DNA from: Escherichia phage dhaeg | Length of the DNA stretch: 64,000 nucleotides | Sequence record: MN850609.1 | Direction: 5' to 3' (one strand) | Shown here: one piece after another, positions 1 through 53,946 of the stretch | Layout of the letters: each line of letters begins with the position of its first letter | Numbering within the stretch: position 1 is the first letter of the stretch | The notes under the pieces: model-generated | Database searches by the model: none | Seen by the model: only the letters and a program-made list of their open reading frames with translations | What the model was told of the DNA's origin: nothing | Program-made: the position numbers and the translations under genes

Positions 1-43
1 TCATAATCGCTGGATGGTGGTTCGATTCCACCCAGGGCCACCA
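1..43 (+). tRNA. 3' portion of a tRNA (anticodon loop reads U-CAU-AA; Ile2/Met-like), truncated by window edge
   Basis: T-arm GGTGGTTCGATTCCACC, acceptor 3' strand + CCA at 41-43; anticodon CAT at 3-5. Confidence 0.5.
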
Positions 44-47
44 ATTT

Positions 48-122
48 GGATGTGTAGCTCAGTGGTAGAGCAGTTGACTGTTAATCAATTGGTCCATGGT
101 TCGAATCCATGCATGTCCGCCA
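48..122 (+). tRNA. tRNA-Asn (anticodon GTT)
   Basis: Cloverleaf by hand: acceptor GGATGTG/CATGTCC, D-arm GCTC..GAGC, anticodon stem GTTGA/TCAAT loop CTGTTAA, T-loop TTCGAAT, CCA end. Confidence 0.65.
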
Positions 123-126
123 AATA

Positions 127-202
127 CGAGGCATAGCTCAGAAGGAAGAGCAAGGACCTTCTAAGTCCTGGGTCGTAGGTTCGATCCCTACTGTCTCGAC
201 CA
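127..202 (+). tRNA. tRNA-Arg (anticodon TCT)
   Basis: Cloverleaf: acceptor CGAGGCA/TGTCTCG, anticodon stem AGGAC/GTCCT loop CTTCTAA, T-arm GTAGG-TTCGATC-CCTAC, CCA; T4 encodes tRNA-Arg(UCU). Confidence 0.8.
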
Positions 203-371
203 AACAAGAAACCGGGTCGCTACCGGTAAGTCGTCGGACTGAAGTTCCCTGAATAAGACCCGACTTTAAGGCGTACATGAGTTCCTCTTAAAGTCCCTTA
301 TCTCACAGCTGAAACGGCGCACCGAACACTTGCCTAGCAGGTGGAACCCCGACAAGGTTACCCTAGGTTAA
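203..371 (+). ncRNA. Candidate small stable RNA co-transcribed downstream of the tRNAs
   Basis: No ORF, GC-richer than surroundings, lies between tRNA-Arg and an intrinsic terminator; T4 encodes stable RNAs of unknown function next to its tRNA cluster. Confidence 0.3.
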
Positions 372-400
372 AGGCCCTTCCGAAAGGTTGGGCCTTTTTT
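372..400 (+). terminator. Rho-independent terminator
   Basis: AGGCCC...GGGCCT hairpin followed by TTTTTT. Confidence 0.65.
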
Positions 401-401
401 G

Positions 402-409
402 TATAAATA
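402..409 (+). promoter_or_regulatory. T4-type late promoter box TATAAATA
   Basis: Exact TATAAATA about 29 nt upstream of the Ip-like gene start. Confidence 0.5.
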
Positions 410-437
410 GATAAGTTAATTAACACAGGAAACAATA

Positions 438-1061
438 ATGAAAACTTACAATGAATTTTTGAACGAAAGCGTTCTGACTGAAGCCAGCGTGCGCATGACT
501 AAAGATATGTGGCAAGCTGCTTATGATAAAATTTCCGGGACTAAAACCACTACCGAGTTCTTTAAAAACGTTTATGATATGTATGGTTTTGATACTAGTA
601 ACCAGAAAGAATATTACAAAGCTTCCAAAGCTTTTAAAGATATCGTAGCCGGTGGCGCTACTAAACCTGCTAAACCAGCTAAAGCTCCTGTTGCTAAACC
701 TGCAGCCCCAACCAAAGTTGCACCACCTAAACCTGCGGCAGCACCTAAAGCAGAGCCTGTAAAAGAAGCTCCTAAACCTAAAATCAAGTTCGACACCAGC
801 ACTATTGTTAAAAAATATAACCAACTGGCTTCTTTGGTTTCTGAAATAGAATCCGAAACTAAACACCTTGTTCGTGAATTCAATGTTCTTCGTAACGGTC
901 AACACATTAACAACCTGGACACACCAGACCTTTATCGTCTCTATCTGACGGTTGAAGGCCTTAAGTACACCCAGCCTATGCGCGAAGAAATTGACAACAA
1001 ACTTCGTCAAGCACGCCGACTGGCCGGTGACGCAGCTCAGTTCGAAAAGACTCGTAAATAA
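438..1061 (+). CDS. Internal head protein (IpIII-like) with capsid-targeting N-terminus and Lys/Ala/Pro-rich basic region
   Basis: N-term MKTYNEFLNE resembles T4 internal-protein CTS (MKTYQEF..E cleavage context); KPAKPAKAPVAKP repeats; late promoter upstream; SD AGGAAAC. Confidence 0.55.
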   Translation: MKTYNEFLNESVLTEASVRMTKDMWQAAYDKISGTKTTTEFFKNVYDMYGFDTSNQKEYYKASKAFKDIVAGGATKPAKPAKAPVAKPAAPTKVAPPKPAAAPKAEPVKEAPKPKIKFDTSTIVKKYNQLASLVSEIESETKHLVREFNVLRNGQHINNLDTPDLYRLYLTVEGLKYTQPMREEIDNKLRQARRLAGDAAQFEKTRK

Positions 1062-1063
1062 TG

Positions 1064-1086
1064 AAAGGAGACTTCGGTCTCCTTTT
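1064..1086 (+). terminator. Rho-independent terminator (UUCG tetraloop)
   Basis: GGAGAC-TTCG-GTCTCC followed by TTTT. Confidence 0.6.
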
Positions 1087-1120
1087 AGGGGGTTTAAACT
1101 AAAAATAATTTCACAAAGTT

Positions 1121-1164
1121 GTTTACACCTCCTTTAAACGTGATACTATAGACCTATCAAAACA
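1121..1164 (+). promoter_or_regulatory. Early promoter cassette (PeSL-like): -35 GTTTAC, N17, extended -10 TGaTACTAT, conserved AGACCTATCAA box
   Basis: GTTTAC 1121-1126, TACTAT 1144-1149; element repeated about 20 times in window. Confidence 0.6.
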
Positions 1165-1184
1165 ACAGAGTGAAGGAGAGTAAA

Positions 1185-1448
1185 ATGGATAATTATGGTG
1201 AATTGTTTAATTTCTTTATGAAATGCGTTCCTGAAGAATTTGGTGCTACTGTTAACGATATTAAGGTTATAGGTGATGACCATCCCATATTTGAAACCTA
1301 CGCAGTAATGGGTAATGACGATGGACAGTGGTATACCGTAAAGGTTGTGGTTAATATGTTTGCTGCCGAAGGGTACGTCAAATTGTCTACCAAAGTTTAT
1401 CACGATAACGATTTTGATGCGGAAGATTATTTCAATAATATGAAATAA
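1185..1448 (+). CDS. Hypothetical small protein
   Basis: ATG with SD GAAGGAGAG; track ORF 1170 starts at GTG inside the SD. Confidence 0.6.
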   Translation: MDNYGELFNFFMKCVPEEFGATVNDIKVIGDDHPIFETYAVMGNDDGQWYTVKVVVNMFAAEGYVKLSTKVYHDNDFDAEDYFNNMK

Positions 1449-1505
1449 TTGTTTACACGGGCTCATGATTGAGATATTATGAGCCCGTAATTTGAGGAGA
1501 GCATA

Positions 1506-1904
1506 ATGAATATCGAAGATAAAGAAATGCAAGAGTTGTATAATTCATTAACGCCTGAACAACAAAAAGCTGCCAAAGAATTAGAGAAAGCTCTTACTTT
1601 CAGCTTGGCAAAAACTGATTGGGCCGCCATGTATGAAGAAAAAAGGAGATCGGAAATTGAAGCTGTCGAGAGAAATGAATGGATTGTAGAAACCAAGATT
1701 TCTGATGGTGGTTGCTCTGTTGAGGTGTCAGCTGTGGTTAAAGGTACTCATGGTGAAAAATCACTAGGTTGGCATAATGAGGCAAACAAATATATTGTTC
1801 TCTCAACGTCAAAAACTTATGGTCAAAGGGTTCCTGTATCCAAAGCTATTATTAAGCAAGCTCAATGGGAAGCCAATGAAATTTGCCTAGCAAAAATGAA
1901 ATAA
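1506..1904 (+). CDS. Hypothetical protein
   Basis: ORF with SD GAGGAGAGCATAATG. Confidence 0.65.
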
Positions 1905-1906
1905 AA

Positions 1907-1937
1907 TGTTTACAACCCTCAGAGGACAGGGTATAAT
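1907..1937 (+). promoter_or_regulatory. Early promoter (GTTTAC -35, TATAAT -10 embedded in inverted repeat GAGGACA/TGTCCTC)
   Basis: GTTTAC 1907-1912, TATAAT 1932-1937 flanked by a 7-bp inverted repeat. Confidence 0.5.
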
Positions 1938-1980
1938 GTCCTCATGGATTACAAAATATCAACCGACTGAAGGAAATACT

Positions 1981-2574
1981 ATGAACACTTTAAAGAAAAT
2001 CGTTGAATTCATCCGTTCTAAACTGGGTACCGCAATGACTCAGAACCTGTCAATCGAAGACCAGTATACTAAAGCTGCTTCTACCCTGATTGATAAAATT
2101 ACTGAACTCCAGACTGCTCATGTTAAGTCTGTGAATGAAGAAAAACGTATTCGCGAGTTAGCGAATGAAAAAGACCAACTCGCCGCTTCAAAAGAGCGTG
2201 AAATTCGTAAACTGATTAAAGAAGGCGCCGATGTCCAGGTGCATGCTAAACTTGGCCTCCTTTATCGTCGTACAGCTAATCAACTTCGTAAGAAAGCAGA
2301 CGATTATATCGAAATGCGTAATGAAATTAAACTGAAGGTCAAGGAACTTGATGACTCTCGTCAAGAACTGGCTGTTAAGCTCGAGTACATCCGTGAAACT
2401 CGTAATATGGCTGCCCTTGGTATTGCTACTGCCGATGATGTGGTTGAAATCGCTGCACTGACTAAGATTGATATTGAAGATACCCTGCTGCGTGTAGAAA
2501 CGTTTAAAGGCCCACAAGTTGGAATGGATACGACTTCAGCCGATATCGAAGACTACATTAATTCACTTAAGTAA
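1981..2574 (+). CDS. Hypothetical coiled-coil protein
   Basis: ATG 1981 preceded by SD GAAGGAAAT; track start 1906 lies inside the promoter; heptad-rich, charged sequence. Confidence 0.6.
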
Positions 2575-2581
2575 TATTACC

Positions 2582-2604
2582 GGGAGACTTCGGTCTCCCT
2601 ATTT
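2582..2604 (+). terminator. Hairpin terminator (weak T-tract)
   Basis: GGGAGAC-TTCG-GTCTCCC then TATTT. Confidence 0.45.
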
Positions 2605-2622
2605 GGAGGAGAGGAGAATATT

Positions 2623-3177
2623 ATGAGTTTATATGATAACCTTATATCAAATATTGATTGGTTTAAAAATAGTGGTCTTTCCCATGAAACCAATTCAGTT
2701 CTTTATAGAATTCGCCAAGACCTAGGCTATTCAAACGATTTCTTAAGCAGAACATCTAGCCGTGGCGATACTACCAAATTACCTTTTATTTTTGCTTTAG
2801 CTGAAGACCTTTCTTTTGAAGATGCTTTGGAAATTATTGACGTAAATCTGGCTATTCAACGAGTGGAATTCGCTGGACTACGTTATTCAGTATATTCTTT
2901 AAATGAGAGCAATGATTGCGTGCTTCTTAATATGGCAGACGATGATTACCATTTAGTATGCTATGTGGCTTTAGAAAATGGTGATGTATTTGGAATGGTC
3001 GACCGCCGCCCAACTTATACTGATATTAAAAATTATGATAAAGATGAGCTTCTTGATTTGGCGGCTGAGTACACATTAGAGAGTCGTAAACGGAAACGTA
3101 AGCTTAATCGTTTTATTGCTGAATGTCGTGAATATGCTAAAGGGGTTCAAAATGCGAACGTTATATCTGCCAAGTAA
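2623..3177 (+). CDS. Hypothetical protein
   Basis: SD GGAGGAGAGGAGAATATTATG. Confidence 0.65.
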   Translation: MSLYDNLISNIDWFKNSGLSHETNSVLYRIRQDLGYSNDFLSRTSSRGDTTKLPFIFALAEDLSFEDALEIIDVNLAIQRVEFAGLRYSVYSLNESNDCVLLNMADDDYHLVCYVALENGDVFGMVDRRPTYTDIKNYDKDELLDLAAEYTLESRKRKRKLNRFIAECREYAKGVQNANVISAK

Positions 3178-3511
3178 ACCAGAAAAATTTGTATACGCAG
3201 ACAAGATTGATAAAGACCTTATGCCTCCATTTGGGGCTCTGTCCATGTGCATCGTTGGAATTATAATGATGGTTGTTTGTGGAGATATGAATATCATCAG
3301 TGTTGGAGTCGCCTGGACGCTAGTAATTACAGCTCCTTTTATTACAGTCCTGTGTATGGTATTGATAAATGTGTGGCATCAAAATCATATGAATAAAGGA
3401 TATCGTGGGCGAGTTAAAGAGTGGGAACAAAAATGTGTTTCCCTACAAGAAGAGCACAAAATTAAATGTGCCGAAGAATTTATTAAGGAGGTTCGTAATG
3501 GAACGGCCTAA
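3152..3511 (+). CDS. Hypothetical membrane protein
   Basis: ATG 3152 after SD AGGGG; two long hydrophobic segments. Confidence 0.5.
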   Translation: MRTLYLPSKPEKFVYADKIDKDLMPPFGALSMCIVGIIMMVVCGDMNIISVGVAWTLVITAPFITVLCMVLINVWHQNHMNKGYRGRVKEWEQKCVSLQEEHKIKCAEEFIKEVRNGTA

Positions 3512-3851
3512 TCTTGCATCACATGTTTATCAATTGGCTGAATATGATATTGGTGCCAATTTATTATTAGGGATTGCCACCGGTATGCTTGGCGGCTTGG
3601 TTGGTCTGGTAATGACCACGGTTATGGCTGCAATCGAGGGAGTCATGCCCATTGAGATGGGTTTCTATATGATAATCGCTCCGGCTGTCGTGGCTTATTT
3701 TATCCCTCTAGTGTATGATATTTGCCATACAAATGCTTTGAATGCTCCCATCCGTAAGAGATATGCTTTAGAGATGGCTAATTATAATGAGTATGTAAAA
3801 CAAACCAAACGTAATGACCTTGAAACCTTTATTAAGGAATGTAAATCATGA
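3498..3851 (+). CDS. Hypothetical membrane protein
   Basis: ATG 3498 after SD AAGGAGG; hydrophobic segments LLLGIATGMLGGLVGLVMTTV and YMIIAPAVVAYFIPLV. Confidence 0.55.
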   Translation: MERPNLASHVYQLAEYDIGANLLLGIATGMLGGLVGLVMTTVMAAIEGVMPIEMGFYMIIAPAVVAYFIPLVYDICHTNALNAPIRKRYALEMANYNEYVKQTKRNDLETFIKECKS

Positions 3852-4138
3852 ATAAAATTGAAATTGAAATCCCTGAATACAACGACGAGAAATCTGCAGA
3901 AAAAGCTATCTATGCTCTTCTGAATAAAGTAGATATCATCGAATCCAAATGTGAAGCTATTGCCGATAAGTACGGTATTCAATTCGGAACAGGTGATTAT
4001 GGCTCAGGACGTACATACTATCCGGTCGGTTATGAATGCTCCCAGTGGTTTAAAGATGAAATTGAAAACAATGGCGGTGAAGTTGAAAATGGCGTCGTTA
4101 CAGTTGGTGCCTGGGTCTCCTCTTCGGCAATGTGCTAA
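3848..4138 (+). CDS. Small protein, member 1 of tandem family with C-terminal W-x-SSS-x-x-C tail
   Basis: ends ...GAWVSSSAMC; SD+ATG; shares ADKY...GDY motif with member 2. Confidence 0.65.
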   Translation: MNKIEIEIPEYNDEKSAEKAIYALLNKVDIIESKCEAIADKYGIQFGTGDYGSGRTYYPVGYECSQWFKDEIENNGGEVENGVVTVGAWVSSSAMC

Positions 4139-4147
4139 GGAAAAGCT

Positions 4148-4429
4148 ATGATGAATGATAATCATAACCATCCAGAGCTTCTGGCCGCAGTAAAAGAAAT
4201 TCATGAAGCTATTCGTCGTGCCGAGGAAATTGCAGATAAATATGAGACTCATTTTAATATATACCCTGCTCGCGGTATGGGCGGTGACTATTATTCTCCT
4301 GGCGCCTTGAAAGCTGACCTTGCCCATTGGGAAGAAGATGGTCATCCTGAATGGGCTATTGTTAATACTCATGACTATACAACTGACCTCGCAACTGGCG
4401 GTTGGGTGTCCTCTTCTTCTGAATGTTAA
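4148..4429 (+). CDS. Small protein, member 2 of W-x-SSS-x-x-C family
   Basis: ends ...GGWVSSSSEC; SD TAAGGAAAAGCTATG. Confidence 0.65.
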   Translation: MMNDNHNHPELLAAVKEIHEAIRRAEEIADKYETHFNIYPARGMGGDYYSPGALKADLAHWEEDGHPEWAIVNTHDYTTDLATGGWVSSSSEC

Positions 4430-4438
4430 GGAAATATT

Positions 4439-4636
4439 ATGTCTCGTGAATTAGATTGTGCAATCCGAACTGCCGCGGCGGCAATTGAAAACGTTATTCA
4501 AATTTGTAAAGAAGAACGCGAAGAAGCTGATATCTATATTGATGGTGCTCGTGACTTAGAACGACATATAACGCTTTATAACGGTTGTATTACTATTAGT
4601 GGTACCTCTTGGGTGTCCTCTTCTTACGAATGCTAA
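4439..4636 (+). CDS. Small protein, member 3 of W-x-SSS-x-x-C family
   Basis: ends ...TSWVSSSYEC; SD TAAGGAAATATTATG. Confidence 0.65.
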   Translation: MSRELDCAIRTAAAAIENVIQICKEEREEADIYIDGARDLERHITLYNGCITISGTSWVSSSYEC

Positions 4637-4645
4637 GGTAATAAA

Positions 4646-4858
4646 ATGACTATTGATGAAATTGAAAAACAAATCCGTGAATTAGTACGTAAAGGCCAGT
4701 CCGTGGCTGATGAAACAGGTGAAGAATTTTATGTTTCTGGACGCGGTCAATACATTTCTCCAAAGAATCCAGAATATGATGATTACGAATGGGTCCGTGA
4801 TGACTACGGTATCCCAGAAGGTGAAGGTTTCTGGTTTAGCTCCTCTATGTCTTGCTAA
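4646..4858 (+). CDS. Small protein, member 4 of W-x-SSS-x-x-C family
   Basis: ends ...GFWFSSSMSC; SD TAAGGTAATAAAATG. Confidence 0.65.
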   Translation: MTIDEIEKQIRELVRKGQSVADETGEEFYVSGRGQYISPKNPEYDDYEWVRDDYGIPEGEGFWFSSSMSC

Positions 4859-4868
4859 GGAATAAAAA

Positions 4869-5093
4869 ATGTCTAATATTAATGAATTGGAAAAAGCAGC
4901 TCTTGAACTGGCTGCGCTGTATAAGAAAGTAAAAGATATGGCTTCTGCCCAGGATTTTGGTGTTGAGCTAGATGATTACGACGGTGAAGTTCGTCTTGAA
5001 GATTGGCTGAATAGCTCTTGTTATGGTGAAGAAGCTGGTCGTACCTTCGTTGCTCGCTCCGATGGTAAAATCTGGTACCCGAGCTCATGCTAA
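4869..5093 (+). CDS. Small protein, member 5 (diverged) of W-x-SSS-x-x-C family
   Basis: ends ...KIWYPSSC; SD TAAGGAATAAAAAATG. Confidence 0.6.
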   Translation: MSNINELEKAALELAALYKKVKDMASAQDFGVELDDYDGEVRLEDWLNSSCYGEEAGRTFVARSDGKIWYPSSC

Positions 5094-5314
5094 AATTAAA
5101 GAAAAGATACATTCGTAAAATAAATGGTCTTCGCGATTATGCCAAAGGTTGGCCGTTAAGTATTATTATGGCTGATAGACACCCACGTTATAATACCGAG
5201 TTGACCTATTATAAAAAGTATGATTCATATTGTCGGTCTAAAGCCGGTCGTTTAGATGGTTCTTATGAAGAATACTTTGGTAAAAAACCTACTCGTATTT
5301 CGTTAGGAAAATAA
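5087..5314 (+). CDS. Hypothetical basic protein (uncertain)
   Basis: ORF only; no clear SD. Confidence 0.3.
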   Translation: MLKLKKRYIRKINGLRDYAKGWPLSIIMADRHPRYNTELTYYKKYDSYCRSKAGRLDGSYEEYFGKKPTRISLGK

Positions 5315-5344
5315 TTTAGCCACACGGATGTGGTAGGAGGACTT

Positions 5345-5674
5345 ATGCACAAAGATTCAGTATTCAAATATCTTTTGAAAACAGATAAAGAATTCTATAT
5401 GAATGGGCAAGCTTTCTTGTTCGTCCGTGGTAAACGTGAGATGTTTTATAAATGCGACCTCTCAATGCACCATCATATGTATCATACCCACGGCGAGCCT
5501 ATACTAGGGTTCTCTGGTGACGAGACTAGACACATAGCTATGTACTATGACCATTTTAAGCTCAATGATTGTGGTGACAACGCTTTGGTCTGGAACCCAT
5601 CTTGGAGACGTTGGGATACAGTAGACAGCGATAAATTATTTTTAGAATATTGCAGAAGTGATGTACAACTCTAA
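5345..5674 (+). CDS. Hypothetical protein (His-rich segment)
   Basis: ATG 5345 after SD GGAGGA. Confidence 0.55.
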   Translation: MHKDSVFKYLLKTDKEFYMNGQAFLFVRGKREMFYKCDLSMHHHMYHTHGEPILGFSGDETRHIAMYYDHFKLNDCGDNALVWNPSWRRWDTVDSDKLFLEYCRSDVQL

Positions 5675-5718
5675 AAACTTGTGTTACTATTACCTTACAC
5701 AAACATGAGGGGAACATT

Positions 5719-5958
5719 ATGTGGTATTATTCTCCACTGTCTGATAAGTCTGATGAGCCGGTACGCATTAGTCGTGCCAAGTTTAAAAAGATTTATGGCT
5801 TTGCCTATAAGAAGTCTGATTACGGTGTTCGTTTTGAAGATGCCCACTGTATCAACGACCCTTATGCAGAAGAAATCTCTAATGAGATAATTCCTATCAT
5901 TAAGAATAATTCTGATGATATGTGGGAATTGCATAACGATTACGTTGCTGAAATTTAA
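5719..5958 (+). CDS. Hypothetical small protein
   Basis: SD GAGGGGAACATTATG. Confidence 0.6.
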   Translation: MWYYSPLSDKSDEPVRISRAKFKKIYGFAYKKSDYGVRFEDAHCINDPYAEEISNEIIPIIKNNSDDMWELHNDYVAEI

Positions 5959-5979
5959 GTTTACTCTGAGGAAAATATT

Positions 5980-6147
5980 ATGTATAATGTTCTTATTGTT
6001 TTTGTTACTCACCCACAAGGTGGCGTAAGGCAGAATACTTCCCAAGTGGTCCAATTTTCTTCACTAGAGGCTGCTAATCTAGCCGCAACGCGTATTGAAG
6101 CAAAAAAATCTGAACTGGGTAAATATGAAGTAACTCGTCTTTATTAA
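5980..6147 (+). CDS. Hypothetical small protein (55 aa), below ORF-track cutoff
   Basis: SD GAGGAAAATATTATG identical to neighbouring genes; fills gap before 6161. Confidence 0.45.
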   Translation: MYNVLIVFVTHPQGGVRQNTSQVVQFSSLEAANLAATRIEAKKSELGKYEVTRLY

Positions 6148-6160
6148 TGAGGAAAATATT

Positions 6161-7120
6161 ATGATGCTAGTTATTGGTTCTCGTGCACTGCACCACGCTG
6201 GTCTGATTGAAAGTAAGTATATCGAAAATTCTGATTGGGATTTTATTGCCGACCAGGGGTCATGGAATAATTTTAAAGCACAGATGTTTGGCGCCCATGT
6301 ACACGTAGACAACCCTGACGTCCAGGCTTTTAAATGCATGCACAACGGTAAAGAAACCTATTTTGAAGCTTATATCGTCCGCGCCTTGACTAACGTACGT
6401 GAAATTACCGGCGAACTCCAAGATGAGGATTTCACCTCAAGCTACCGCCTTCTGAATTATGCTAAAACACATATTAAGAAAGATCGGATGACGGGTTTCT
6501 ATTGGGCCACGCCTGATATCTGTCTGGCCATCAAAATGAGCCATCGTTATTTGAAGAACAACCCTTTCTTTTTGAAGACGATGTCCCACATCAAATACCT
6601 TCGTAATAAAGGTGTAACCTTGAATGAAGAGCTCCAAGAAATCATGCTGCAACGTCAGAAAGAAACGTTGAGCTATTCTCATCCTAAATTAGATGTAAAC
6701 AAATCATCGTTCTTTAATGATACCATCTATACATTAGACCACGACTCTATTCATGAAGCTGTGGCATTAGCCGGACGCCCAGCGTATACCTTTTATATGA
6801 AAGATGGTTCTGAAGTCATGACCTCTCGTGAGAAGTTTGAAGCTTTGCCTGAAGCTATTAAACTGGCAGGGGTTTATGAAGAAGCATGTGTACTTGCTCT
6901 AGAGCGTTCGCAGGTTCCTAATGACTTTAATATCCCAGCAGCCACAAGTTTCTATATGGCTCTTGAGAAAGTGTGCACCTCAATCACTTCAGGTTGGTTC
7001 CGTGAGTATGCCTGGGAAAACTACCAAGCTGTAGTGAATATGTATAGGACCCTAGGTGAAAGTGACTACATCAACCGGTTTAAGCGTAATCAACATTTAA
7101 TTCGTCCTTTCGAAAAATAA
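6161..7120 (+). CDS. Hypothetical protein (319 aa), accessory region
   Basis: Long ORF, SD GAGGAAAATATTATG; no motif confidently recognised. Confidence 0.7.
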   Translation: MMLVIGSRALHHAGLIESKYIENSDWDFIADQGSWNNFKAQMFGAHVHVDNPDVQAFKCMHNGKETYFEAYIVRALTNVREITGELQDEDFTSSYRLLNYAKTHIKKDRMTGFYWATPDICLAIKMSHRYLKNNPFFLKTMSHIKYLRNKGVTLNEELQEIMLQRQKETLSYSHPKLDVNKSSFFNDTIYTLDHDSIHEAVALAGRPAYTFYMKDGSEVMTSREKFEALPEAIKLAGVYEEACVLALERSQVPNDFNIPAATSFYMALEKVCTSITSGWFREYAWENYQAVVNMYRTLGESDYINRFKRNQHLIRPFEK

Positions 7121-9666: not shown

Positions 9667-9674
9667 TATAAATA
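9667..9674 (+). promoter_or_regulatory. T4-type late promoter TATAAATA for lysozyme gene, inside SD-sequestering hairpin region
   Basis: Exact TATAAATA; followed by inverted repeat CCTCC-TATAATCA-GGAGG that contains the SD of e. Confidence 0.55.
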
Positions 9675-9696: not shown

Positions 9697-10185
9697 ATGG
9701 ATATTTTTGATATGTTACGTCAAGACGAAGGTCTTGATTTAAATCTTTATAAAGACACCGAAGGTTATTGGACTATTGGTATAGGCCAATTGATTACTAA
9801 GAACCCATCTAAAGATGTTGCTCGCGCTGAACTTGATAAGCTTATGGGTCGAGTTTGTAATGGTCGTATTACTATGGCTGAAGCCGAACAACTCTTTAAT
9901 CGTTCAGTAGAAAATGCCCGTAGAGCTATAACGCGCAATCCTAAATTGAAACCGGTTTATGATGTGCTAGACGAAGTTCGTCGTTGCGCATTGATTAATA
10001 TGGTCTTCCAAATGGGTGAAGCTGGTGTAGCGGGATTTACCAACTCTCTGCGTATGCTCCAACAAAAACGTTGGGATGACGCCGCAGTTAACCTGGCGCA
10101 GTCTCGTTGGTACAAGCAAACCCCTAATCGTGCCAAGCGTGTTATCGCCACCTTTAAAACAGGTACTTGGGCCGCTTATAGATAA
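9697..10185 (+). CDS. e: Endolysin, T4 lysozyme (GH24)
   Basis: Near-colinear with T4 lysozyme ([13 protein letters not shown]...[13 protein letters not shown]...; catalytic E11/D20/T26 context conserved). Confidence 0.95.
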
Positions 10186-15379: not shown

Positions 15380-15658
15380 ATGGACCTAAATTCAAAGATT
15401 TTAATTCTAGCGTTCGCTGTGGCCATCTCTTATATTGTTCTTTCGCCCATCATGGATGATGTGGCTTACAAAAGAGAGATAGAAGTTGTAGCAGCGACGT
15501 ATAATGCTAATAATAAAGAATGTCCTAATAAAAATGGAATGGATTTAATTAAAGCGCATTATATGCTTTCCATTACCTCGCCTATACAGAGGAATTGGGT
15601 TGAATATAATTTTAACGACGTGTTCTATTCTTATTGTCGTAAGCTTAAAAAGCTATAA
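15380..15658 (+). CDS. Hypothetical membrane protein
   Basis: N-terminal TM helix; SD GAGGGTACTATG. Confidence 0.55.
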   Translation: MDLNSKILILAFAVAISYIVLSPIMDDVAYKREIEVVAATYNANNKECPNKNGMDLIKAHYMLSITSPIQRNWVEYNFNDVFYSYCRKLKKL

Positions 15659-15661
15659 ATA
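15654..15661 (+). promoter_or_regulatory. Possible late promoter TATAAATA
   Basis: Exact octamer about 90 nt upstream of 15752. Confidence 0.3.
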
Positions 15662-15751: not shown

Positions 15752-16045
15752 ATGGGTATTTTCCGTACAGTGGCTTGTATCCTTATGATTGGATGTTTAA
15801 GCCCGACATCTTCACTAGCAAACAAATCCGACCCTAAATTGATGGATGCCTTTGCTAGTAGTGCGATGCCAGTTTATGCGCAAATGAGTAAACCTAGTGT
15901 AAAGGCTTCCGAAGACTACTGGGCTTATGTAACTGCTTCTTGGAAAATTTCAAATTGCAATACAATAGAGTCTTGCTCGATTGAAGGTCGGGCTATCGGA
16001 GAACGATACGCTAAACTAATGAAGGTAGATGATGAAATTCAATGA
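15752..16045 (+). CDS. Putative lipoprotein/secreted protein
   Basis: Signal peptide with Cys (LMIGC). Confidence 0.6.
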   Translation: MGIFRTVACILMIGCLSPTSSLANKSDPKLMDAFASSAMPVYAQMSKPSVKASEDYWAYVTASWKISNCNTIESCSIEGRAIGERYAKLMKVDDEIQ

Positions 16046-17693: not shown

Positions 17694-18254
17694 ATGATTA
17701 TTGAAACATCTGGGCTGTTTGGTGACCTGACTGCTGAAGTAGTTGATAATGCAATTGTGCTTTCACAAGAAGACGATAAAATCGTACTGACTATCCAAGA
17801 TATCAAGCCGCTTTATGATTTAAAGGTTTTGGACAAACACGAATATCTTAATGGCAGATTTAGAGGTGTATTTGATATTAATGATGGTTTATGGGCCCAG
17901 ATTTATAACCATGACAAAGGGTTTAATTTGGAAACAGACGGAGAATGTCTGAGCATTAGCGATTCTAGTAATTTCTTTAAATGTATTTTTAAACTGTTCC
18001 AGGAAGAATGCAAGCCGGAAGTTGAATGGAAAGTCCCTGGTCAAGATGCCGTAATTCGTTCTAGTGAAACATTTGAAGGTGATGAAGAAGAAATGGATTA
18101 TGATACCGAACTAACCGTGTATCAACACCAGGGCCGTGATTTGCTATCCTTGGTCCAAAGACACGACGGTGAAAATGAAGTTGTATTTACGAAGGACGAG
18201 CTAAAAGTTTTAGTATCTTATCTGAACTCTGTTATCCCAACTATGAACTCTTAA
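17694..18254 (+). CDS. Acidic hypothetical protein (186 aa)
   Basis: SD TGAGGAACGGAAAATG; strongly acidic composition. Confidence 0.65.
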   Translation: MIIETSGLFGDLTAEVVDNAIVLSQEDDKIVLTIQDIKPLYDLKVLDKHEYLNGRFRGVFDINDGLWAQIYNHDKGFNLETDGECLSISDSSNFFKCIFKLFQEECKPEVEWKVPGQDAVIRSSETFEGDEEEMDYDTELTVYQHQGRDLLSLVQRHDGENEVVFTKDELKVLVSYLNSVIPTMNS

Positions 18255-26632: not shown

Positions 26633-26809
26633 ATGAAAACTAAATTAGTCTATACTGAAAAGTTAAATGGTGACAAGGTCTGGAAACTTCTTATCAAAGG
26701 AAGTCCTACCGACCAGTTTATGGCCACCTGTATAGGGTTGTATACCCGTCCTACCAAAAAGATGATTCGTCAATTTAAACGGTTGCATCGCTCATTTTAT
26801 AATGTTTAA
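26633..26809 (+). CDS. Possible small basic protein (58 aa)
   Basis: ORF below track cutoff. Confidence 0.4.
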   Translation: MKTKLVYTEKLNGDKVWKLLIKGSPTDQFMATCIGLYTRPTKKMIRQFKRLHRSFYNV

Positions 26810-26815
26810 TAAATA
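26808..26815 (+). promoter_or_regulatory. Late-promoter-like box AATAAATA upstream of gene 49, followed by CCCTTA...TAAGGG hairpin
   Basis: 7/8 match to TATAAATA; inverted repeat around SD. Confidence 0.35.
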
Positions 26816-50834: not shown

Positions 50835-51128
50835 ATGAAAAAGTTATTAATCGCAGCAATCCTTACAGTAGCATCATGTGGCACGGCTCCGGTAACTGCC
50901 GGATTGGATAAAGACCTTTGTGAATGGTCTATGACTGCAGACCAAGAGTCAGTTGAACATCAGATTTACGCTGATATCATGAACATCACTAAACGCGACC
51001 GTCCTGATATGGTTAAAGAAGTATCTGACCAATTGGCTTCTAGTGGTGTTATGCAGTATAACTATGTTCTGTACTGTGATGCTAATTTCGATAACAAAAA
51101 TATTGTTAAAGAGGTGACAGGTGAATAA
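50835..51128 (+). CDS. sp: Spackle periplasmic protein
   Basis: 97 aa, signal peptide, colinear with T4 Sp as recalled (..DKDLCEWSMTADQ..VMQYNYVLYCD..). Confidence 0.75.
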   Translation: MKKLLIAAILTVASCGTAPVTAGLDKDLCEWSMTADQESVEHQIYADIMNITKRDRPDMVKEVSDQLASSGVMQYNYVLYCDANFDNKNIVKEVTGE

Positions 51129-51562: not shown

Positions 51563-51754
51563 ATGACTGCAATGTGTACAGGCTCTAAGATTTCTGTATT
51601 CGAACTGTTCGAAGAATATGAAATCGTATCAAAAGACCAAGAAGCTATCCATATTATTGCAGGTGATGGCTTAACTTGGATTATTCCACTTTACCACGAA
51701 GATACGTATGAAGTCACTGATGCAAATGGTGATAAAGCTATTTTCGTAATATAA
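51563..51754 (+). CDS. Hypothetical small protein
   Basis: ORF. Confidence 0.5.
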   Translation: MTAMCTGSKISVFELFEEYEIVSKDQEAIHIIAGDGLTWIIPLYHEDTYEVTDANGDKAIFVI

Positions 51755-51757
51755 ATA
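51750..51757 (+). promoter_or_regulatory. Possible late promoter TATAAATA
   Basis: Exact octamer 14 nt upstream of SD of 51771 ORF. Confidence 0.3.
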
Positions 51758-51770
51758 AGGCCAGGAGCCT

Positions 51771-51970: not shown

Positions 51971-52999
51971 ATGTCATATGTCGATAGAGAATTTGCTGTA
52001 CGTGCCTTGAATTACCAACCTAAATTCAGACAAGTAACTGGTAGTGATTTTAAATTAAACTGTCGTTGCCGTGTATGTGGTGACTCCCAAAAAGATGAAA
52101 ACAAAGCTCGATTCTGGGCCTATCCGGCCAATGACGGCTCTGTAATGCTACACTGTTTTAACTGTGATTATTCGGCAGGAATTAAGAAGTACCTATACGA
52201 ATACGAACCTGATTTATATCGGGAATATATTCTTGAGAAACATAAAGAGCAATCGTTCGGGAGACAAGCTGCACCTAAGGTGGAGATATCTGAAAAAATT
52301 AAAGCTAAGATGCCTGTAATCGAAAAGCTTAATTTCTGTGAACGATTAGATAGAATGCCGAAGGACCATCCTATTATCAAATATGTGACGTTACGTTGCA
52401 TTCCTGAAAATAAATGGAATCGTCTATGGTTTACTAAAGAATGGCCTGCATTGGTTAACTCAGTTAATCCAGGAACCTATTCTAAAGAAATGCCTGAGCC
52501 CCGTTTGGTTATTCCTATTTTCAATAAGGATAAACAAATAGAAAGTTTCCAGGGTCGAGCCTTGCGTAAAGATGCCCCACAAAAATATATTACAATAAAA
52601 GCTCATGACCAAGCTACAAAAATATATGGAATGGATACGGTTGACGAACGTCAATTGGTATGGGTTATGGAAGGGCCTATTGATTCTTTATTTGTCCCTA
52701 ATGCCATAGCAATTACTGGTGGGTCATTAGACTTATCAGTAGTTCCATGTAAAGAAACAAGAGCGTGGGTAATGGACAATGAACCCCGTCATCCTGACAC
52801 AATTAAGCGTATGCAACGCCTAGTTGATGCTGGCGAAAGGGTTCTATTCTGGGACAAGGCTCCGTGGCCTTCTAAAGATATAAATGATATGGTTATGAAA
52901 GATAAAGCTGATATAAATGATGTATTGGCATATATGAAAGCTAATATAGCCCAAGGGTTAATGGCAAAAATGAGGCTTTCAAAATATTCTAAAATTTAG
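51971..52999 (+). CDS. 61: DNA primase gp61
   Basis: 342 aa; N-terminal zinc ribbon CRCRVCGD...C..C; TOPRIM-like region; position after 41. Confidence 0.9.
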   Translation: MSYVDREFAVRALNYQPKFRQVTGSDFKLNCRCRVCGDSQKDENKARFWAYPANDGSVMLHCFNCDYSAGIKKYLYEYEPDLYREYILEKHKEQSFGRQAAPKVEISEKIKAKMPVIEKLNFCERLDRMPKDHPIIKYVTLRCIPENKWNRLWFTKEWPALVNSVNPGTYSKEMPEPRLVIPIFNKDKQIESFQGRALRKDAPQKYITIKAHDQATKIYGMDTVDERQLVWVMEGPIDSLFVPNAIAITGGSLDLSVVPCKETRAWVMDNEPRHPDTIKRMQRLVDAGERVLFWDKAPWPSKDINDMVMKDKADINDVLAYMKANIAQGLMAKMRLSKYSKI

Positions 53000-53196
53000 A
53001 CAGGAACTCCGCTAAAGAATCCAATTATGCTTAACACGTGTTCCATTGTAACCGCTGGTAAAATTACCCCTTGGCTAGCGGCTACAGGGACTACTAGAAG
53101 ATTCCAAAGGAATACGTCTAGCGCAAGAAAACCTAACATCATTTTCTTGTCTTTCTTTTCTGCCAATTTCCAGATTTGGTAAAAAATACTGCCCAT
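52996..53196 (-). CDS. Small membrane protein encoded on the opposite strand, convergent with gene 61
   Basis: Only non-overlapping minus-strand ORF; strong SD (AGGAGG 5 nt upstream of ATG on minus strand); two hydrophobic helices. Confidence 0.5.
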   Translation of the reverse strand: MGSIFYQIWKLAEKKDKKMMLGFLALDVFLWNLLVVPVAASQGVILPAVTMEHVLSIIGFFSGVPV

Positions 53197-53287
53197 GTTA
53201 TCCTCCTGTTAAATTAATATTTATTCGCTTTAGTCTAACAGTTTATAATTATCTAACTTATTAATGAATTGAAAAAGGAAAAATATA

Positions 53288-53809
53288 ATGGCTCATTTTA
53301 ATGAATGTTCTCAACTTATTGCTGGTGCTGATAAAGCTGAAGAAGCTTATTTTAATGCTCTGATTCACGAAGATAAAGACCCTCTGCAAGTTATGCTTGA
53401 TATGCAGAAATCATTACAGGTTCGTCTGGCCACTGAAAAATCGGAATTCAACACCAATCCTGATGAACTAGCTACAGCAGGTCAAGTTGTTGATTGGCTT
53501 CGCAACCAGAAAGATTATATTGATGATGAATTCCGTGAACTGCTGACTTCTCTTGGCGGTATGAGTAATGGCGAAAAAGCTGCCTCTAGTGTGTGGAAGC
53601 CTTGGAAAGCCCAACATGCTGAATTCCGTAATCGTCGTATTGACGAGTTGTCTCCTGAAGACCAGCTCGAAATCAAATTCGAGATGATTGATATTCTGCA
53701 CTTTGTTCTTAATATGTTCCAGGGTCTTGGACTGACCGCTGAAGAAATCTTTAAACTGTATTATCTGAAAAATGCCGAGAACTTTGCTCGTCAAGACCGA
53801 GGTTATTAA
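53288..53809 (+). CDS. 56: dCTPase/dUTPase gp56 (MazG-like dNTP pyrophosphatase)
   Basis: 173 aa; similarity to T4 gp56 as recalled (MAHFNEC..., C-terminal YYLKN.ENFARQDRGY). Confidence 0.75.
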   Translation: MAHFNECSQLIAGADKAEEAYFNALIHEDKDPLQVMLDMQKSLQVRLATEKSEFNTNPDELATAGQVVDWLRNQKDYIDDEFRELLTSLGGMSNGEKAASSVWKPWKAQHAEFRNRRIDELSPEDQLEIKFEMIDILHFVLNMFQGLGLTAEEIFKLYYLKNAENFARQDRGY

Positions 53810-53938: not shown

Positions 53939-53946
53939 AATAAATA
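53939..53946 (+). promoter_or_regulatory. Late-promoter-like box AATAAATA upstream of soc
   Basis: 7/8 match to TATAAATA about 30 nt upstream of soc start. Confidence 0.35.

Follow-up and report, generated by a model that had tools for sequence, protein, structure and literature searches.

A small membrane-protein gene of the Dam.1 family, convergent with primase gene 61 in Escherichia phage dhaeg and predicted to have its own late promoter

Phages related to T4 carry a small gene behind the DNA primase gene 61 that has been recorded under several names: dam.1 in T4T (HM137666.1, ADJ39749.1), RB32ORF030w in RB51 and RB69ORF029w in RB69. Neither the gene nor its family is new: GenBank lists a hypothetical protein, and the names PHROG 2024, dam.1 and ORF029w are in use. 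For RB69ORF029w one transmembrane (TM) segment comprising residues 21–41 was predicted, and no signal peptide was found by SignalP (Nolan et al., PMC1524935). Literature searches for dam.1, for ORF029w/ORF030w and for unannotated small proteins of T4 returned no paper that discusses the gene. Here we analyse its counterpart in Escherichia phage dhaeg, using a stretch of 64,000 nucleotides from sequence record MN850609.1 which is called the window in the following. The counterpart is an open reading frame (ORF) at 52996..53196 on the minus strand, which lies between gene 61 and gene 56 and encodes the 66-amino-acid product MGSIFYQIWKLAEKKDKKMMLGFLALDVFLWNLLVVPVAASQGVILPAVTMEHVLSIIGFFSGVPV. We regard it as practically certain that this ORF is a real gene. 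Its length is no evidence for this, because antisense ORFs of 64–108 amino acids arise by chance within nearby plus-strand genes, where they were found mechanically on the minus strand; the case for more than chance rests on conservation and signals.

The window ORF resembles T4 Dam.1, RB69ORF029w and RB32ORF030w in its basic N-terminus, in a TM segment with the pattern WN...P.A...G...P, in its place after gene 61 with overlapping stop codons, and in the upstream elements ATAAATA and AGGAGG. It differs from T4 Dam.1, which is an a-type protein, in being of the b-type and about 27% identical to it, and in having gene 56 instead of dam as the neighbour on the promoter side. The features of the locus are as follows.

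52996..53196, minus strand: coding sequence of the 66-amino-acid small membrane protein, Dam.1 / RB69ORF029w / PHROG 2024 family, b-type (JS98-like) paralogue
53202..53207, minus strand: Shine–Dalgarno (SD) sequence AGGAGG (cctcct on the plus strand), followed after 5 nt by the ATG at 53196-53194, read from the sequence
53218..53225, minus strand: late-promoter-like element AATAAATA, 21 nt before the ATG (T4 late -10 consensus TATAAATA)
52996..52999, both strands: interlocked stop codons TTAG (TAA on the minus strand, TAG on the plus strand), a 4-nt overlap of the convergent genes
51971..52999, plus strand: gene 61 (DNA primase), the convergent neighbour (phrog_47, E=3.8e-97)
53288..53809, plus strand: gene 56 (dCTPase), the divergent neighbour on the promoter side (phrog_173, E=1e-44)

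The TAG stop of gene 61 occupies 52997-52999 and the TAA stop of the ORF is read from the complementary strand of 52996-52998, which leaves the two genes without a spacer. The original prediction had described a lone minus-strand ORF between genes 61 and 56 with a strong SD sequence 5 nt before its start and a stop overlapping that of gene 61, and this description holds in all points. ORFs of at least 60 amino acids on the plus strand cover 91% of the window, and the remaining gaps match small plus-strand genes annotated in the closest relative, phage CLB_P2. Across the whole stretch the CLB_P2 record contains a single other minus-strand coding sequence, which is 29 amino acids long and dubious. 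The ORF is the sole credible minus-strand gene of the window. The CLB_P2 annotation was used as a guide only, and positions were verified on the ORFs of the window itself: the 1.5 kb around the ORF are 100% identical to CLB_P2 (OL770107.1; also OZ035781.1) and 99.3% identical to phage dhabil, both of them Dhakavirus (JS98-like) phages, whereas beyond this local region the comparison with OL770107.1 shows many substitutions, insertions and deletions, with coordinate offsets from -494 to +341. The window thus represents another Dhakavirus or else a mosaic phage related to CLB_P2. In some close relatives, for example vB_EcoM-E33 and vB_SalD_ABTNLS3, the interval from gene 61 to gene 56 is interrupted by about 630 bp of inserted sequence with a homing endonuclease annotation.

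The product matches PHROG 2024, a family of unknown function, with E=6.5e-28 (residues 1–64 on positions 1–64 of a profile of 65), and no other PHROG was matched at E<=0.01; neither Pfam nor NCBIfam yielded a significant match to the protein. Identical proteins occur in JS98, CLB_P2 and others. With tblastn, the b-type (window-like) query retrieved 121 phage records, the T4-type 693 and the Klebsiella/Salmonella type 279, these sets overlapping somewhat, so that family members are found in roughly a thousand phage records, including T4 (dam.1 in T4T), T2, T6, RB69 and JS98. All members from the isolate collection belong to phages of Enterobacterales. The family is narrow and coherent: when 1.84 billion representative proteins were searched exhaustively with its profile, 17 clusters only were recovered. 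Between genera synonymous sites are saturated (pS 0.76–0.83) while pN is 0.13–0.28, and close pairs have dN/dS values of 0.04–0.26. The gene is, judged by these substitution patterns, under purifying selection. Further searches added little: a related-locus search on viral contigs gave 11 loci which apparently belong to close T-even relatives with unchanged arrangement, a degenerate motif scan of genome contigs gave three chance matches in high-GC bacteria, and the metagenomic members P0077 and P0078, used as tblastn queries, had few or no matches among isolate phages.

The position of the gene is as well conserved as its sequence. In seven genera (Tequatro-, Mosig-, Dhaka-, Gapriver-, Jiaoda-, Kanagawa- and Gelderlandvirus) it lies directly 3' of gene 61 and convergent with it, and the same 4-nt overlap of the stop codons is found in T4, RB69, VR25, Kosakonia phage 305 and T2. 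The neighbour on the promoter side is variable, being gene 56 in the window, dam in T4 and a homing endonuclease or a hypothetical gene in Kanagawavirus. These comparisons show that the gene is fixed 3' of the primase gene, in convergent orientation, across a large clade of the Tevenvirinae. The synteny check that had been proposed for the ORF thus came out in its favour, with place and orientation kept in all seven genera. On the other hand, the suggestion that a convergent small membrane protein is unusual here was overstated, given the same arrangement in the seven genera read and the roughly thousand records. No such ORF follows gene 61 in Tegunavirus TG1, Serratia phage Muldoon, Acinetobacter phage Ac42, a KP15-like Klebsiella phage and Krischvirus ECD7, and for this reason we consider gene and promoter specific to one clade of the Tevenvirinae. 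In these five phages a gene on the same strand as gene 61 begins at its end or at most 40 nt from it, and in three of them this gene is gene 56.

Nearly all phages closely related to T4 have the gene, and so has T4, whose reference sequence contains it unannotated. At 17738..17938 on the plus strand of NC_000866.4, in the apparent gap of about 310 bp between dam and gene 61, there is an ORF of 66 amino acids which has the same architecture as the window ORF, likewise overlaps gene 61 by 4 nt and is preceded by almost the same sequence. The reference records of JS98 (NC_010105), PEi20 (copy at 1474..1659 of locus L010) and SP18 (711..908 of locus L040) likewise lack their copy. On the gene 61 strand of T4 a terminator-like hairpin with a T-run, ATGGCATTAACAAGTGCCAT TAATTTTTGT, lies within the first codons of dam.1 (locus L004, 3254..3273, minus strand); this hairpin could, as far as the sequence indicates, stop transcription of gene 61 shortly ahead of the dam promoter. 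Nothing comparable was predicted in the window.

Homologues that are annotated bear contradictory names. Several Klebsiella phages call the protein a "DNA packaging ATPase" and CGG4-1 a "dCTP pyrophosphatase" (CGG41_026); T2 and T6 (AP018813/AP018814) call it a "putative head morphogenesis protein", a label which the T2 record also gives to gp61.1; and the UniRef entry P0057 (OE5505) carries the automatic name "Holin". We rejected all four labels as unsupported and probably automatic.

The protein itself is very probably a membrane protein, as the original prediction had proposed. Hydropathy and charge give one firm TM segment at about residues 19–41 which follows 4–7 lysines and arginines, and the published TM segment of RB69ORF029w falls at nearly the same place. 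An AlphaFold2 model made from a 13-sequence alignment has helices at residues 2–11, 14–41 and 51–62 with a loop at 42–50 (mean pLDDT, the model's own confidence measure, 73.7). The proposed two hydrophobic helices are borne out in part: the first is firm, whereas the C-terminal part is only moderately hydrophobic and contains the 12-residue helix of the model. Over the last ~24 residues the mean Kyte–Doolittle value is 0.5–2.1 across homologues, and the tail of 21–32 residues has 0–1 Lys/Arg, at most three acidic residues, 1–3 histidines and variable hydrophobicity. In a profile search of PDB sequences the family gave chance TM matches only (nicotinic acetylcholine receptor), and a Foldseek search of the model against BFVD gave family members and non-significant matches only.

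When 21 diverse members, from a family with sizes of 57–82 amino acids, are aligned, P37 is invariant and W31 and N32 are conserved in at least 90%; the consensus reads WN-x-I-x-V-P-x-A-A-x-x-G-x-x-L-P-x-x-x-x-E. A mid-helix asparagine is well known to promote association between TM helices, and since the asparagine is near-invariant in this position we infer oligomerisation or a TM partner. The positive-inside rule implies a cytoplasmic N-terminus. In our proposal the basic N-terminus would lie in the cytoplasm and be followed by a single inner-membrane helix of residues ~19–41, whose Trp-Asn pair at mid-helix would drive self-oligomerisation or the binding of a partner TM segment; the conserved stretch P-x-A-x3-G-x3-P-x4-(E/D) would come next at the periplasmic face, and the protein would end in a short hydrophobic, acidic C-terminal helix. 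This tail may re-enter the membrane, may lie at the interface or may be freed by cleavage after an AXA-like site.

Two types of the protein can be distinguished. The a-type (T4, RB69) and the b-type (JS98, the window) are 23–27% identical and share the motif, and one hidden Markov model (HMM) built from both retrieves both. Gaprivervirus VR25 has both types intact in tandem, first a and then b (locus L006, 1295..1701). SP18 has an intact a-type and a b-type truncated at the N-terminus (locus L040, 711..1020), and Dhakavirus NC-G has a frameshifted b-type followed by an intact a-type (locus L039, 844..1293). Every locus read retains at least one intact copy, which suggests that the a- and b-types do the same job and that this job is under selection.

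We consider it likely that the gene is a gp55-dependent late gene. Late genes of the T4 type, which depend on gp55, gp33 and gp45, have a -10 element like TATAAATA closely upstream and no -35 element. In T4 the genes e, rI, 49 and soc are late-transcribed or have late promoters. The predicted transcription start of the window gene is near 53212, which would give a leader of about 16 nt with the strong SD sequence. The motif WATAAATA, to which the element at 53218-53225 conforms, occurs seven times on both strands of the 64 kb where 15.8 occurrences are expected, and 100 of 100 shuffled sequences had at least seven. All seven sites lie 13–90 nt 5' of a start codon in the correct orientation, and the element of the ORF is the only one on the minus strand. 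The six plus-strand sites are:

402-409, plus strand: before a 207-amino-acid ORF (438)
9667-9674, plus strand: before e
15654-15661, plus strand: before rI
26808-26815, plus strand: before 49 (endonuclease VII)
51750-51757, plus strand: before 61.1
53939-53946, plus strand: before soc

Because the motif is depleted elsewhere and all seven sites are upstream of starts, it looks like a very specific marker of late promoters in this phage. Its conservation points in the same direction. Of 12 first-copy loci, drawn from seven genera between which the flanks cannot be aligned, 11 have an exact ATAAATA 12–21 nt ahead of the ATG. A GGAGG-type SD sequence with the same spacing is present in the T-even homologues examined. 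Matches to sigma-70-type promoters upstream of the ORF are at chance level. As the conserved late element lies directly upstream of the ORF, we propose a late gene placed in reverse within the early region. It is a strong inference from these signals that the gene is transcribed apart from the early and middle genes around it and has its own gp55-type late promoter, and the earlier idea of late or independent regulation is supported to that extent. The corresponding dam.1 transcript of T4 is predicted to have its 5' end about 6 nt past GATAAATA.

Several points weigh against this assignment. The window element is AATAAATA and not the canonical TATAAATA, and the twelfth locus, CGG4-1, has ATTAAATA with one further mismatch. 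The HMM-based list of late promoters in RB69 has no site before RB69ORF029w (PMC1524935), and a transcriptome and proteome study of T4 counted the features of NC_000866.4 only, dam.1 not being among them (PMC9697503). As to the first point, T at position -13 is poorly conserved in T4-like phages, A or T being common (Nolan et al. 2006, PMC1524935). As to the last, the T4 study was blind to dam.1 because it was quantified on a record without the annotation.

A precedent for a small gene with its own late promoter inside an early block is soc of T4, for which P(L) 15.32 is annotated in X01416. In the window soc (53978) is preceded at 53939-53946 by the same variant AATAAATA as the ORF. It differs in being co-oriented with the early genes and in encoding a soluble capsid decoration protein, whereas the window gene is reversed and encodes a membrane protein. 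On the opposite strand two further signals, read from the sequence, face gene 56 and may form a middle promoter:

53227-53232, plus strand: MotA-box-like GCTTTA
53244-53249, plus strand: TATAAT, 11 nt downstream of GCTTTA

They resemble the mot-box promoter P(M) 16.53 which is annotated upstream of gene 56 in T4, and the pair is 1 nt from the late element of the minus strand. The arrangement looks like a compact divergent pair with a putative middle promoter on one strand and a putative late promoter on the other.

What the protein does is a more speculative matter. Our best overall explanation, to which we give about an even chance, is a conserved late small inner-membrane protein acting as an accessory of lysis or of the envelope programme. 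Late in infection it would sit in the cytoplasmic membrane and serve this programme, for example as a modulator of hole formation or of lysis timing. We do not propose it as the primary holin because T-even phages have T. The accessory role is a best guess, and its narrower form, a role related to lysis, is tentative and in our view rather doubtful.

The lead towards lysis comes from distant family members outside the T4-like phages. These are P0074, P0076, P0077 and P0078 from metagenomic contigs, which match phrog_2024 with E values from 1e-9 to 6e-11, and an unannotated ORF of 57 amino acids in the E. coli phage record DCP80 (PQ671644.1, locus L037, 4792..4965) which shows the motif and can be aligned to the other members. 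The member belongs here to a late module on one strand with the order lambda-J-like tail tip, TM–coiled-coil protein, endonuclease VII, family member, a protein of 180 amino acids, one of ~105 amino acids, and a soluble T4-E-like lysozyme. The modules, each with all genes on the same strand, are located as follows.

L030, 3237..5918: non-T4 late module
L035, 1..5082: non-T4 late module
L036, 933..4159: non-T4 late module
L037 (DCP80), 18..6714: non-T4 late module

In four related loci the member is 0.9–3.3 kb from a lysozyme, the distance being 1.5–3.3 kb in loci other than those with the full gene order. Apart from the family member and the TM–coiled-coil protein, no small membrane protein is obvious in the vicinity of this lysozyme, which requires a holin, and a role in lysis is plausible because so few candidates adjoin it. 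Two observations concern the DCP80 record itself: its TM–coiled-coil ORF of 153 amino acids (3853..4314) is unannotated, and the record, which is 141 kb long and bears the label Gaprivervirus, is perhaps a mixed assembly.

The likeness to small holins and pinholins (S21-68 of phage 21, gp17.5 of T7, GTA_holin_3TM PF11351, phrog_3427) consists of a length of 60–80 amino acids, a place in the membrane, a TM segment with a polar residue in it and expression that is predicted to be late. The family core also aligns weakly, far below significance, to the C-terminal third of 3-TM holin profiles. The differences are that the charged cytoplasmic C-terminal tail of holins is absent from the family, in which the charge is N-terminal, and that T-even phages already have T. 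The original prediction had called the protein holin-like; in view of the sub-significant profile matches and the missing tail this was a guess.

A number of findings stand against a lysis role and have to be taken together. The non-T4 loci are small in number and are relatives of one another. No holin profile is matched significantly by the family: PF11351 gives E=0.08–0.1 with 13.6 bits against a cut-off of 24.8 bits, phrog_3427 gives E=0.0023 for one distant member only, and a Pfam scan of the 21 members gave nothing above threshold (GTA_holin_3TM, YwcE and Mlo below it). From residue 42 to the end most members have no Lys/Arg and 0–2 Asp/Glu, the basic cluster being N-terminal; the exceptions are CGG4-1 with one lysine and three acidic residues and Kosakonia phage 305 with one arginine. 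The lysozyme gene e lies at 9697..10185 of the window, about 43 kb from the gene. Lysis of T-even phages is, moreover, accounted for by T, E, RI, RIII and spanins. As regards distance, T4's own holin gene is also unlinked to e.

Among the alternatives, a membrane protein that serves superinfection exclusion or counters a membrane-acting host defence, and not lysis, survives best; it is nevertheless unlikely. It would fit a small inner-membrane protein with a conserved motif facing the periplasm and a family limited, in the isolate collection, to phages of Enterobacterales. The protein also diverges faster than its neighbours, with 27% identity between T4 and the window against ~61% for gp61, a comparison of an a-type with a b-type; and the swapping and loss of a- and b-types among close relatives is often seen in accessory genes at the host interface. 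Imm, Sp and RI of T4 are likewise small envelope proteins of the phage encoded in the same genome region, and in the window Spackle is at 50835..51128 and rI at 15752..16045. The window protein has, however, no sequence relationship to them and matches phrog_2024 alone, and RI has a releasable signal anchor and a periplasmic domain whereas the window protein is almost devoid of an extramembrane domain. T4 Imm and Sp are early functions, and a protein predicted to be made late does not fit with them; superinfection exclusion and anti-defence as first suggested were guesses, with the timing arguing against the classical early kind of exclusion. That one intact copy is always kept suggests a core rather than a dispensable function.

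A different type of explanation places the main function at the level of RNA, with late antisense transcription through gene 61 shutting down the primase or hampering read-through from gene 61 to gene 56 and the peptide being secondary. Antisense transcription into gene 61, one of the consequences originally proposed, is physically plausible: the stop codons are interlocked, and since intrinsic terminators are predicted neither at the junction nor over ~1.2 kb into gene 61, a late transcript would run antisense into the primase gene and may have consequences for it. The first candidate stop for such a transcript is a weak terminator-like hairpin at 51758..51770 on the minus strand, beside the plus-strand TATAAATA of gene 61.1. 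The gene stays attached to the 3' end of gene 61 although the other neighbour varies, and the promoter and leader are nearly identical in T4 and the window phage while the proteins are 27% identical. Nevertheless, we hold it improbable that this is the main function. The amino acid sequence is under strong purifying selection and the strong SD sequence is kept in the T-even homologues examined, the non-T4 family members have no gene 61 opposite, and the T4-like genera without the gene manage without such control. Since it is the protein on which selection acts, and since family members occur in other phages without gene 61, antisense transcription is not the reason why the ORF is kept, and an effect of this kind could still exist as a by-product. 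The RNA at the junction of gene 61 and the ORF has no unusually stable fold (z-score 0.71).

It is also conceivable, and in our judgement very improbable, that the product is a precursor in which the basic N-terminus and hydrophobic segment form a long signal peptide, cleaved after P-x-A-x-(A/S/T) to release a hydrophobic acidic peptide of ~25 residues into the periplasm. Many members indeed have small residues at -3 and -1 and a proline at about -6 before a conserved (H/Q/N)-G; the cut would fall between SPVAIA and HG in T4, VPVAAS and QG in the window, and IPVAAS and NG in Kosakonia. A typical cleaved signal peptide is, however, shorter both in its hydrophobic segment, here ~22 residues, and in its n-region, here ~18 residues; RB69 has leucine at -3, and the published prediction for RB69ORF029w is SignalP-negative with a TM segment at 21–41 (PMC1524935). 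Finally, an ORF that arose by chance between genes 61 and 56, which the frequency of antisense ORFs of 64–108 amino acids in an AT-rich genome and the omission from the T4 NC_000866, JS98, PEi20 and SP18 annotations might suggest, has next to no probability, being refuted by the substitution pattern, by the conserved motif and upstream signals, by frame, length and SD sequence kept across genera with saturated synonymous sites, and by a coherent family from the exhaustive profile search that includes unrelated phages.

Returning to the conserved and probably late membrane protein, the gene would be one of few conserved late genes of T-even phages whose function is not known, and it encodes a membrane protein. 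The useful outcomes of the analysis are the assignment of a late promoter, the pattern of a- and b-paralogues, the link to late modules containing a lysozyme and the gap in the T4 annotation. Analyses which are built on the T4 RefSeq annotation, such as the omics study mentioned above, miss the gene. It is a long shot, but Dam.1/PHROG 2024 might be an unrecognised membrane component of lysis or lysis timing in T-even phages, an oligomerising TM protein which acts with or against T, which would be the holin itself in the lysozyme-linked non-T4 phages and which would have been missed through the T4 annotation gap. If this is true, the well-studied lysis system of T4 has an overlooked component.

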